Positions 1-29,809 of a stretch of DNA of 64,000 nucleotides are shown piece by piece; position 1 is the stretch's first letter, and the number at the start of each line of letters is the position of its first letter. Source of the DNA: Escherichia coli (GTDB taxonomy: Bacteria > Pseudomonadota > Gammaproteobacteria > Enterobacterales > Enterobacteriaceae); the NCBI RefSeq assembly GCF_003334405.1, contig NZ_QOWM01000018.1; one strand, 5' to 3'. The position numbers were made by a program, and so were the translations under genes. The notes below the pieces were generated by a model that saw only the letters and a program-made list of their open reading frames with translations, was not told the origin of the DNA and did no database searches.

Positions 1-15
1 GTACCGGATTGGCAC
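1..15 (-). repeat. shufflon sfx site, partial (cut by window edge), inverted orientation
   Basis: gtaccggattggcac is the reverse complement of the conserved arm GTGCCAATCCGG plus 3 bp of core seen in the other five sites. Confidence 0.6.
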
Positions 16-23
16 TGGCCTAC

Positions 24-42
24 GTGCCAATCCGGTACCTGG
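24..42 (+). repeat. shufflon sfx 19-bp site (arm GTGCCAATCCGG + core TACCTGG)
   Basis: exact 19-mer gtgccaatccggtacctgg; encodes CQSGTW in the frame that continues into the segment to its right. Confidence 0.75.
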
Positions 43-282
43 AAATCATCATCAGCGTCGATATGGACGAATATAAAAACATTTACGTTATATCCCAAAA
101 ACACACAGGTCTTAGGGAGGTTTAAACTGTGTATTAACACCTATCGTATTGACGGGCGTGAAATGGCAGAAACAGAAGTCGTTCCTATTGACATGCCTGA
201 CTCTAACGGCGAGATGACTTGGCAAGCCAAAAACTACACACAGTATTCGTCCTACTTTATGAAGATTACTTGCTTGAAATAG
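25..282 (+). CDS. pilV: PilV thin-pilus adhesin, alternative C-terminal exon (no own start codon; joined to pilV constant region by inversion)
   Basis: open frame runs from repeat-encoded CQSGTW (24-42) to TAG at 280-282; converges on the opposite-strand exon in the same segment. Confidence 0.5.
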   Translation, partial: CQSGTWKSSSASIWTNIKTFTLYPKNTQVLGRFKLCINTYRIDGREMAETEVVPIDMPDSNGEMTWQAKNYTQYSSYFMKITCLK

Positions 283-283
283 C

Positions 284-547
284 TTATTGGCAAAGGGCAT
301 ATACAGTTATTGAACCATTCTGATCTTCGGTTGTATCGCACGCAGCCGACCATGAGTTATTGGCTGATGGGAATGACCTGGTAAGCCATATGTAACCAGT
401 TCGTGAGGTGCATATTCCGCCGCCACCTGTAACACGTTTTCCAGTTGGACAGGTAGCTGTTGCTCCAGGAAAGCGCCAACCTGTGGCCTGTGCTGTAGCA
501 ATTTGAAGCTCACCAGATCCTACCTTTCTCCAGGTACCGGATTGGCA
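284..547 (-). CDS. pilV: PilV alternative C-terminal exon
   Basis: minus-strand frame from sfx 530-548 (CQSGTW) to stop at 284; Gly/Thr/Cys-rich tail. Confidence 0.5.
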   Translation of the reverse strand, partial: CQSGTWRKVGSGELQIATAQATGWRFPGATATCPTGKRVTGGGGICTSRTGYIWLTRSFPSANNSWSAACDTTEDQNGSITVYALCQ

Positions 548-548
548 C
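530..548 (-). repeat. shufflon sfx 19-bp site (core TACCTGG), inverted orientation
   Basis: ccaggtaccggattggcac = reverse complement of gtgccaatccggtacctgg. Confidence 0.75.
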
Positions 549-576
549 GTAGGCCAGCAGCGCCAGCAATTTAATC

Positions 577-876
577 TCAGTTCTGACACGCGACGACATA
601 ACTACATTTTCCGGTTAAATCAGCTCTAAATGTCCCTTTATGGAAATTGTATTCATCATAAAAACCACATTTAACAATTCGATTTGCATCATAAGTTGCA
701 ACTGATCCTGCAAAGTAATTCGGCTTCCAACCTTGAGGGTTTTCTGCATTGCTCACACTCCATGAGCACTGACTGGCAGAAAATCCTGTTGGCAGCGGTA
801 TTTGCTGACCATTTGCTATACGACCAGTTATCACCGTACTACCAGAATTGCTTTTACGCCAAGTACCGGATTGGCA
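577..876 (-). CDS. pilV: PilV alternative C-terminal exon (single exon in this segment)
   Basis: minus-strand frame from sfx 859-877 (CQSGTW) to stop at 577. Confidence 0.5.
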
Positions 877-877
877 C
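859..877 (-). repeat. shufflon sfx 19-bp site (core TACTTGG), inverted orientation
   Basis: ccaagtaccggattggcac; head-to-head with the site at 886-904, 8-bp spacer gtaggcca. Confidence 0.75.
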
Positions 878-885
878 GTAGGCCA

Positions 886-904
886 GTGCCAATCCGGTAC
901 CTGG
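886..904 (+). repeat. shufflon sfx 19-bp site (core TACCTGG)
   Basis: exact 19-mer gtgccaatccggtacctgg. Confidence 0.75.
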
Positions 905-1150
905 GGCGCACCTAAAATTCAATTCACAACGCAGACCTACAACATAGCTAAAAACACTCGTAATTTAAGGCTCGGGGTCCATGCATATTGCTCATGGACT
1001 TACCTGAATGGCTCACCCTTTGGTGGTTTTCAACAGGTATATTCCGACCAAAACAACGTTTGGTATGTGAGTAATTATGCTTGGGGAAATTATGAGTCTG
1101 GTGGGACCATATCAGTCACATGCCTCAATCTTCCTGGTGCTGGAGCTTAA
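887..1150 (+). CDS. pilV: PilV alternative C-terminal exon
   Basis: plus-strand frame from sfx 886-904 (CQSGTW) to stop at 1148-1150. Confidence 0.5.
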
Positions 1151-1377
1151 TTAAAGGGGCAACAGTAGGCATCGACATGTTCCTCATCAACACCATCACC
1201 AATACCGTACATGCGTGTTCCAGTCATAATGTATCCAGTCGGACATTGAATCGGCTTGTAATAGATCGAACCACCACTCTTACCGCCGATAAAGTGATTC
1301 ATTGCTACGGATGATTTGTACCAATTACATGCTGAGTAATTAATTTTATTACCCCCTGACCACCGACCGGATTGGCA
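1147..1377 (-). CDS. pilV: PilV alternative C-terminal exon
   Basis: minus-strand frame from sfx 1360-1378 (CQSGRW) to stop at 1147; converges on the 887-1150 exon. Confidence 0.5.
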
Positions 1378-1378
1378 C
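1360..1378 (-). repeat. shufflon sfx 19-bp site (core TCGGTGG), inverted orientation, adjacent to rci
   Basis: ccaccgaccggattggcac = reverse complement of gtgccaatccggtcggtgg. Confidence 0.7.
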
Positions 1379-1429
1379 GCTTGCAGAGAATGGTTGTTGG
1401 CATTATTTTTTGCCTCTTTTGAGGTTAGC

Positions 1430-2584
1430 ATGCCGTCTCCACGCATCCGTAAAATGTCCCTGTCGCGCGCACTGGATAAGTACCTGAAAACAGTTTCTGT
1501 TCACAAGAAAGGGCATCAACAGGAGTTTTACCGGAGCAATGTTATCAAGCGATATCCCATTGCCCTTCGGAATATGGACGAAATAACAACCGTTGATATT
1601 GCTACATACAGAGACGTTCGTTTAGCAGAAATCAACCCCCGAACGGGTAAAGCCATTACAGGTAATACTGTACGTCTTGAACTCGCCCTTCTGTCATCTC
1701 TGTTCAATATTGCTCGTGTTGAATGGGGAACCTGTCGTACTAACCCGGTTGAACTGGTTCGCAAGCCGAAAGTATCCTCCGGACGAGATCGCCGGCTAAC
1801 GTCTTCAGAAGAACGTCGCCTTTCTCGCTATTTCCGCGAAAAAAATCTGATGTTGTATGTCATTTTCCATCTTGCCCTTGAAACAGCCATGCGGCAGGGC
1901 GAAATACTGGCTTTACGTTGGGAGCACATTGATTTGCGTCACGGTGTGGCTCATTTACCTGAAACCAAAAACGGTCACTCACGGGATGTTCCTCTGTCCA
2001 GACGTGCCCGTAACTTTCTTCAGATGATGCCCGTTAATCTCCACGGCAATGTTTTTGATTACACCGCATCCGGCTTTAAAAATGCCTGGAGAATAGCCAC
2101 ACAACGACTTCGCATCGAGGACCTGCATTTTCACGATCTACGGCATGAAGCAATAAGCCGCTTCTTCGAACTGGGTAGCCTGAATGTAATGGAGATTGCT
2201 GCAATATCAGGACATCGTTCCATGAATATGCTGAAACGGTATACTCATCTTCGTGCATGGCAACTGGTCAGTAAGCTTGATGCCCGCCGGCGGCAGACAC
2301 AAAAAGTGGCAGCATGGTTTGTGCCGTATCCTGCCCATATCACGACCATCGATGAAGAAAATGGGCAGAAAGCGCATCGTATTGAGATCGGTGATTTTGA
2401 TAACCTTCACGTCACTGCCACAACGAAAGAGGAAGCAGTTCACCGCGCCAGTGAGGTTTTGTTGCGTACACTGGCCATTGCAGCACAGAAAGGCGAACGT
2501 GTCCCATCTCCCGGAGCGTTACCTGTTAACGACCCTGACTACATTATGATTTGCCCTCTGAACCCGGGCAGCGCCCCGCTGTAA
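1430..2584 (+). CDS. rci: shufflon-specific tyrosine recombinase Rci
   Basis: N-terminus [13 protein letters not shown], tyrosine-recombinase motifs ([17 protein letters not shown]), starts 52 bp after last sfx site; ATG 1430 (384 aa) preferred over upstream ATG 1394. Confidence 0.85.
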
Positions 2585-28802: not shown

Positions 28803-28889
28803 GTTAGTTGAAAAGAGATTACCTCCGGTCAGGGCCACCAACTCTGTAACGGAACAGTAAAAAAACCGACCTCACCAGTCGGTTTTTTT
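28803..28889 (+). ncRNA. candidate ~87-nt sRNA (promoter -35 TTGCTA 28768-28773, -10 TATTAT 28791-28796; intrinsic terminator 28859-28889)
   Basis: sigma70-like promoter with 17-bp spacing, perfect terminator hairpin CCGAC..GTCGG + T7; 5' end 16/16 identical to 28616-28631. Confidence 0.35.
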
Positions 28890-29042
28890 ACATCTGTTGT
28901 TTCTCAAAATCCGCCCGACATGCCCGTCACACCGGGGAAACTCATGCTCTGAATCAGAACCAACCATCTCAACTTTGCCGTCTCCTGAAAAAACTGGCAC
29001 ATTCAGTTCGATAACTACCCATAAATACAGAGAGAAAATCCG

Positions 29043-29365: not shown

Positions 29366-29521
29366 TTAACGTTTAACTTCGTAGGCTAACGTTGCCACAA
29401 GCACTGTGTTTCCCTGCTGGAGCCGGAGTCCGCAAAGCGAATCCCTCACCATCCAAACAAAACACAGAATCGTCACACAGATGACGATTAACATCATTAA
29501 AAACGTTCGCTGTGGCATCAT
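29366..29521 (-). CDS. pndA: Hok/Gef-family type I toxin PndA
   Basis: translated by hand: MMPQRTFLMMLIVICVTILCFVWMVRDSLCGLRLQQGNTVLVATLAYEVKR, GGAGG RBS; not in ORF track (under 60 aa); overlapped by longer pndC/mok-like frame 29373-29657. Confidence 0.8.
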   Translation of the reverse strand: MMPQRTFLMMLIVICVTILCFVWMVRDSLCGLRLQQGNTVLVATLAYEVKR

Positions 29522-29809
29522 AGCCCCTCCATTGCCTTACGGCGGTTATCGGGCTACTATAATGTTGTCTAGGCATTACAGTAGAGCCCTTGGTTGATTG
29601 ATAAAAAAATCTCCAGGGGCTTTCTGCTGTATACCGTCCACAAAACGCTTTCGGCATACAGCCTCAAGCGCCCGCAGCTATTCTAACGACTTTCGTATCT
29701 GCAACAATCCTTTTATCGCACGGCTAATTCCTCTGGTTAGCTCTTATCGCCTGCAAATAAATTTTTAACCTTTCCGTTTGATTTAAATTCCAGAAATGGA
29801 GACTTTGTC

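Follow-up and report, generated by a model that had tools for sequence, protein, structure and literature searches.

An R64-type shufflon and its rci recombinase gene in an IncI1-type plasmid sequence of Escherichia coli

The shufflon of plasmid R64 is the type example of its family and was reportedly characterised experimentally by Komano and co-workers. The canonical R64 set comprises four segments and seven sfx recombination sites (PMC11852207, PMC5430464). Each sfx is built from a 7-bp core flanked by two 12-bp arms, the left one variable and the right one conserved along with the core (PMC11852207), and the asymmetry of the sites is thought to limit the recombinase Rci to inversions (PMC11852207, PMC4176322). 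The resulting PilV variants serve as thin-pilus tip adhesins for different lipopolysaccharides and set the recipient specificity in liquid mating (PMC11852207, PMC5430464). Other IncI-type shufflons follow the same principle, with an Rci-type recombinase, sfx-type repeats and alternative PilV C-termini (PMC5430464), and multiple-inversion systems driven by tyrosine recombinases are also found in Bacteroides fragilis (Tsr0667, SusC/SusD) and Mycoplasma pulmonis (vsa) (PMC11852207).

We analysed a stretch of 64,000 nucleotides of E. coli DNA (contig NZ_QOWM01000018.1), referred to as the window, of which bases 1-2584 almost certainly represent the three quarters nearest to rci of a canonical R64-type IncI1 shufflon, together with its recombinase gene. 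Compared with R64 (NC_005014), the window contains the same 19-bp sfx repeats and right-arm variants, segments B, D and C at 2, 0 and 1 mismatches (99.6-100% identity), and five exons of equal length with 0-1 amino acid changes; rci likewise lies beside the array and the IncI1 transfer backbone likewise follows downstream. The two differ in the inversion isomer, which is A-D-C-B(inverted)-rci in R64 and (A)-B-D-C-rci in the window, and in the recombinase at P75A and T382A. Different segment sets are carried by ColIb-P9 (A, B, C), by the IncI2 plasmid R721 (A, BD, C) and by IncK/IncZ plasmids, the IncI2 sequences being diverged as well, whereas the window corresponds to the four-segment R64 set including D, unlike ColIb-P9 and IncI2. 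The B. fragilis Tsr0667 and M. pulmonis vsa systems likewise rely on one recombinase that rearranges alternative coding segments through a number of inverted sites, but their proteins, sites and targets are unrelated and they belong to another family. Judged by sequence, the locus belongs to the R64-type shufflon family and is in essence the same as the type example; the system is already known. An initial annotation of the window had read it as a shufflon with alternative PilV C-termini joined by Rci, and the near-identity of the sfx sites, the exons and rci to those of R64 bears this out.

Recombination sites and silent PilV exons

A window-wide search returned exactly six copies of the 12-mer GTGCCAATCCGG, located at 4-15 (-), 24-35 (+), 537-548 (-), 866-877 (-), 886-897 (+) and 1367-1378 (-), with none elsewhere in the 64 kb. 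The 13-mer GTGCCAATCCGGT (GTGCCAATCCGG followed by T) matched six times within bases 1-1378, whereas 100 dinucleotide-preserving shuffles of the window gave no match (mean 0.00, maximum 0). Allowing two mismatches in GTGCCAATCCGG produced five further matches elsewhere in the window, a number at chance level, while a window-wide search for the full 19-mer sfx with up to three mismatches recovered the five complete sites only; degenerate extra sfx sites, sought across the window, were found nowhere else. The sites and the spacers between them are as follows.

1-15, minus strand: sfx truncated at the window edge, with 15 of its 19 conserved nucleotides present, core TTGGCAC at 9-15
16-23: spacer of 8 bp, tggcctac, between head-to-head sfx sites
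24-42, plus strand: sfx of exon B, core GTGCCAA at 24-30, right arm TCCGGTACCTGG at 31-42
530-548, minus strand: sfx of exon B', core at 542-548
859-877, minus strand: sfx of exon D', core at 871-877, right-arm triplet CTT
878-885: spacer of 8 bp, gtaggcca, exact reverse complement of the spacer at 16-23
886-904, plus strand: sfx of exon C, core at 886-892
1360-1378, minus strand: sfx of exon C', core at 1372-1378, divergent right arm TCCGGTCGGTGG

The sites thus listed (six, five of them complete) occur in both orientations, and the last of them, the C' sfx at 1360-1378, forms the rci-proximal end of the shufflon. The exon direction of the edge sfx (1-15) points leftwards out of the window and its tail is unreadable; in relatives with the same isomer, its counterpart is the site of an A or A' exon. 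The unit at 1-42 is an inverted copy of that at 859-900 (98%), and the 12-bp left arm of each head-to-head sfx is formed by the spacer 8-mer plus 4 nt from the core next to it. The left arm of the B' sfx (549-560) coincides with the exon-less end of segment D.

The window sites share the 19-mer but vary in the 12 nt ahead of GTGCCAA, so that, on comparative grounds, the crossover core must be the invariant GTGCCAA and the right arm TCCGGTNNNTGG. This placement was examined further in 12 loci from different plasmids, in which the variable triplet of the right arm stays with its exon while left arms are swapped: the triplet is ACG for A and A', ACC for B, B' and C, CGG for C', and ACT for D' (ACC in three records). 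A triplet kept with the exon alongside exchanged left arms would be expected only from strand exchange in the core, which separates the left arm from the triplet. The D' triplet amounts to a polymorphism of the Rci-binding arm, being ACC in the three records L004, L007 and L011 and ACT in the window and the others.

The initial annotation had counted six sites, which the exact matches and the empty shuffles support, and had given the tails as TACCTGG three times and TACTTGG and TCGGTGG once each, which agrees with the readable sites, the sixth being cut by the edge. The two spacers it had described as reverse complements are exactly so. Its label of a "variable 7-bp core" should be dropped, as the variable bases sit in the right arm and travel with the exon, the core being assigned to GTGCCAA as above.

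Three segments and five exons are delimited by these sites.

43-529: segment B, 487 bp, 485/487 identical to R64
549-858: segment D, 310 bp, with a single exon, 310/310 identical to R64
905-1359: segment C, 455 bp, 454/455 identical to R64
25-282, plus strand: silent PilV C-terminal exon B, 85 aa, beginning CQSGTWKSSSAS, identical to R64
284-547, minus strand: silent PilV C-terminal exon B', 87 aa, one amino acid different from R64
577-876, minus strand: silent PilV C-terminal exon D', 99 aa, identical to R64
887-1150, plus strand: silent PilV C-terminal exon C, 87 aa, identical to R64
1147-1377, minus strand: silent PilV C-terminal exon C', 76 aa, with a CQSGRW start, identical to R64

The exon names rest on depositors' and PGAP annotations of relatives. 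Segment B takes its name from the "PilVB C-terminal segment" of LC567081, in which the 85-aa frame is annotated as PilVB, so that the 87-aa frame opposite B is B'. The 99-aa frame was named D', and its segment D, after the annotations "shufflon protein D'" and "PilVD' C-terminal segment" in relatives, and segment C with its exons C and C' after "shufflon protein C / C'" in CP035009 and "PilVC C-terminal segment" in LC567052.

Across the window the array reads truncated sfx, 8 bp, B, D, 8 bp, C and rci, with exons B and C pointing right and B', D' and C' pointing left. Counted from the Cys of CQSG, the frames run for 85, 87, 99, 87 and 76 codons to the stop. All five exons start with CQSG(T/R)W within an sfx and have an in-frame stop 8-41 codons upstream, which makes them five cassettes without a start of their own. 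The locus thus holds invertible segments with promoterless pilV 3' exons that begin in sfx (CQSGxW). The exon pairs are convergent, the stops lying 1 bp apart in segment B (282/284) and overlapping in segment C (1150/1147), while segment D has one exon. This layout, with two convergent exons each in B and C and one in D, is that of the initial annotation, and the 75-100-codon frames it had claimed were found as five frames of 76-99 codons. Its statement that every copy of the repeat leads into a CQSG(T/R)W frame is right for five of the six sites and does not apply to the sixth, the exon of which lies outside the window.

Scanned alone against NCBIfam, the five exons gave zero family matches. 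The NCBIfam PilV model evidently needs the constant region, and given the near-identity to R64, we do not count this result against the identification.

In the present arrangement, the sites flanking segment D share one orientation and D has its own site at one end only. Its exon-less end (549-560, gtaggccagcag) starts with the 8-mer of both spacers and serves as the left arm of any abutting sfx. As D is without a partner exon, this end might be the remnant of a lost eighth sfx. It has only the 8-mer in common with the spacers, and the frame behind it, read by eye, closes after about 20 codons.

A 99-aa ORF with an ATG start at 1147-1446 (-) consists of the silent C' cassette extended across its sfx and antisense into the first rci codons. 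In relatives it is labelled either "pilus assembly protein PilV" or hypothetical; in all likelihood it is an artefact of annotation and no gene.

The recombinase gene and the plasmid backbone

The array is adjoined by an intact recombinase gene.

1430-2584, plus strand: rci, shufflon-specific tyrosine recombinase, 384 aa

Residues 122-275 of the protein match Pfam Phage_integrase (E=1.2e-23) and are followed by about 110 further residues, so the gene next to the array encodes the extra C-terminal domain. NCBIfam gave Xer-type matches to Rci, all of them sub-threshold, while the Pfam match is clear. The protein differs from R64 Rci by P75A and T382A, and by T382A alone from WP_001139955, the Rci given as the starting query in PMC11852207. 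The latter substitution, at window position 2573 (rci codon 382), places Ala for Thr three residues from the C-terminus.

Beyond rci, the window consists of IncI1 backbone, so that the transfer functions (traE-traY, excA, trbABC and the nikAB/oriT region) lie next to the shufflon, along with hok/sok; the backbone continues into a leading region with ardA/psiAB/ssb and then umuDC-type and par (stability) genes. Bases 2601-27600 share 99.3% identity with IncI plasmids over 100% of their length, and bases 27601-52600 share 98.1%. The best-match identity is thus lower over the trb-nik-leading and stability regions (27601-64000), at 98.1-98.4%, than over the tra region, at 99.3%, and for the last 11 kb the best match with replicon typing retrieved is IncK2/Z. 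This suggests that the backbone at 27601-64000 may be mosaic. Two Rfam matches, AgrB at 28804-28891 (+) with 58.5 bits, accompanied by a dqlB-type toxin in relatives, and the sok antitoxin RNA of the hok/sok module at 29516-29673 (-) with 134 bits, lie between excA and trbA, as in R64.

Inversion isomers and the left flank in related plasmids

Bases 1-2600 share 99.5% identity with the best complete IncI plasmids in the plasmid collection. A search of PLSDB with these bases matched 1404 records, nearly all of them conjugative MOBP/MPF_I IncI plasmids from Escherichia, Salmonella and Shigella, so that matching DNA in various inversion isomers is present in more than 1,000 IncI-type plasmids. 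At least 80% of the 2.6-kb query was matched in one place in 268 of the 1404 records, consistent with the same arrangement. R64, H1, H22 and H3 share a set of seven exons but differ in how these are ordered and oriented: segment D neighbours A in R64 and rci in both H1 and H22, in the window it has B and C on either side, and the orientation of the 8-bp spacer differs among R64, H22 and the window. Such diversity of exon order and orientation among near-identical plasmids is what would be expected as the footprint of Rci inversion.

The exon frame lengths are conserved in the R64, H1, H3 and H22 records. Early stops in other isolates had been named by the initial annotation as an observation that would overturn its reading, and two sporadic cases were found, an A exon shortened from 117 to 66 aa (L010, 2504 (-)) and a B exon shortened from 85 to 29 aa (L014, 2524 (+)); the other copies examined are full-length and the reading stands. 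The two truncated silent cassettes look like decay or sequencing (long-read indel) errors.

Relatives also present the shufflon as a hotspot for insertions and deletions. In LC567094 (pS127; L008, 1-2964), ISEcp1-blaCTX-M-1 sits inside the array and most segments are lost, pN600 (L006) is without segment C, and L012 (66-1604) has ISEc8 upstream of the array.

To assess the DNA to the left of base 1, we took seven complete plasmids that match the 2.6 kb in one uninterrupted alignment and thus have the same isomer. In all seven, segment A directly adjoins, on the left, the position that aligns with window base 1, with the seventh sfx and with exons of 117 and 73 aa, both at TACGTGG-type sites. 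An annotated intact pilV (357 constant codons) is located left of segment A in six of the seven, joined to A' in four and to A in two; in the remaining plasmid, L012, ISEc8 lies upstream, at the place where pilV begins in the other six, and pilV is not annotated. The relatives therefore give good support to the view that the pilV constant region, as the initial annotation had predicted, and segment A probably lie left of base 1 in the present molecule as well. None of the five window exons is joined to pilV and all five are silent in the present isomer, which, given the canonical four segments, leaves A or A' by elimination. The expressed tip is most probably PilVA or PilVA', provided that the segment set is canonical, and the statement of the initial annotation that the expressed tip cannot be told was too pessimistic.

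It is possible, though we lean against it, that the segment order B-D-C is in part a product of assembly, with the contig broken at the sfx/spacer repeat and the order perhaps a consensus of a mixed population: shufflons are notoriously hard to assemble, the window starts 15 nt into a 19-nt sfx repeat, an unlikely spot for an arbitrary cut, and another PLSDB record (H106) also begins inside segment B. However, the order B-D-C-rci occurs as one uninterrupted alignment in complete plasmids, such as H3, H4, H5 and H8, and is thus a legitimate isomer; moreover, an assembly effect would touch the order only and leave the identity of the feature as it is.

We regard it as unlikely that a real shufflon has been disabled or disrupted in its unseen left part, by an IS-truncated pilV or a resistance module, so that inversion would proceed without a functional change of adhesin. 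The damage in L012 (ISEc8), pS127 (ISEcp1-blaCTX-M-1) and pN600 (segment C absent) provides precedents and the window stops exactly inside an sfx, but such damage is a minority pattern, given the intact annotated pilV and segment A in six of the seven same-isomer plasmids, and neither the five window exons nor rci show any damage, all of them being nearly the same as in R64. Quite improbable, too, is a left part that departs from the canonical set through an extra or novel PilV cassette or through cargo or an IS such as ISEcp1-blaCTX-M-1, or an Rci in which T382A alters inversion; the window contains no pointer to either. That the repeats match by chance or belong to an unrelated inverted-repeat element, with accidental open frames, has a negligible probability, its only point being that the exons alone match no NCBIfam model, and is ruled out by the shuffles (0 against 6 observed) and the near-identity to R64, with conserved frame lengths.

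Proposed inversion mechanism and its meaning

For the R64-type shufflon proposed here, Rci would bind each sfx at its conserved core and right arm, and strand exchange would occur within the 7-bp core GTGCCAA between any two inverted sites. With asymmetric sites, only inversion would result, everything between the two cores being flipped, and another CQSG(T/R)W cassette would be set in frame behind the constant part of pilV, of about 357 codons, predicted just left of the window. Segment D, with its own site at one end only, would move through inversions that use a neighbour's site. The spacer 8-mer would flip whenever an inversion spans it; as the spacers are shared left arms flipped by inversion, the two would come to be reverse-complementary. 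The thin pilus would be the type IV conjugative pilus, with the PilV variants as its tip adhesins. Both the inversion chemistry and the adhesin function are carried over to this locus from the literature, and nothing in the window sequence contradicts the shufflon explanation.

The shufflon of the window is real but ordinary, and the system is one already described. For annotation, it marks the window as an IncI1-type conjugative plasmid, and the small ORFs called here are silent PilV cassettes and no independent genes. A contig end at this place would be explicable, since shufflons break short-read assemblies. The control of liquid-mating recipients by shufflons has been worked out since the 1980s; the choice of recipient in liquid mating that the shufflon sets bears on the spread of resistance plasmids.
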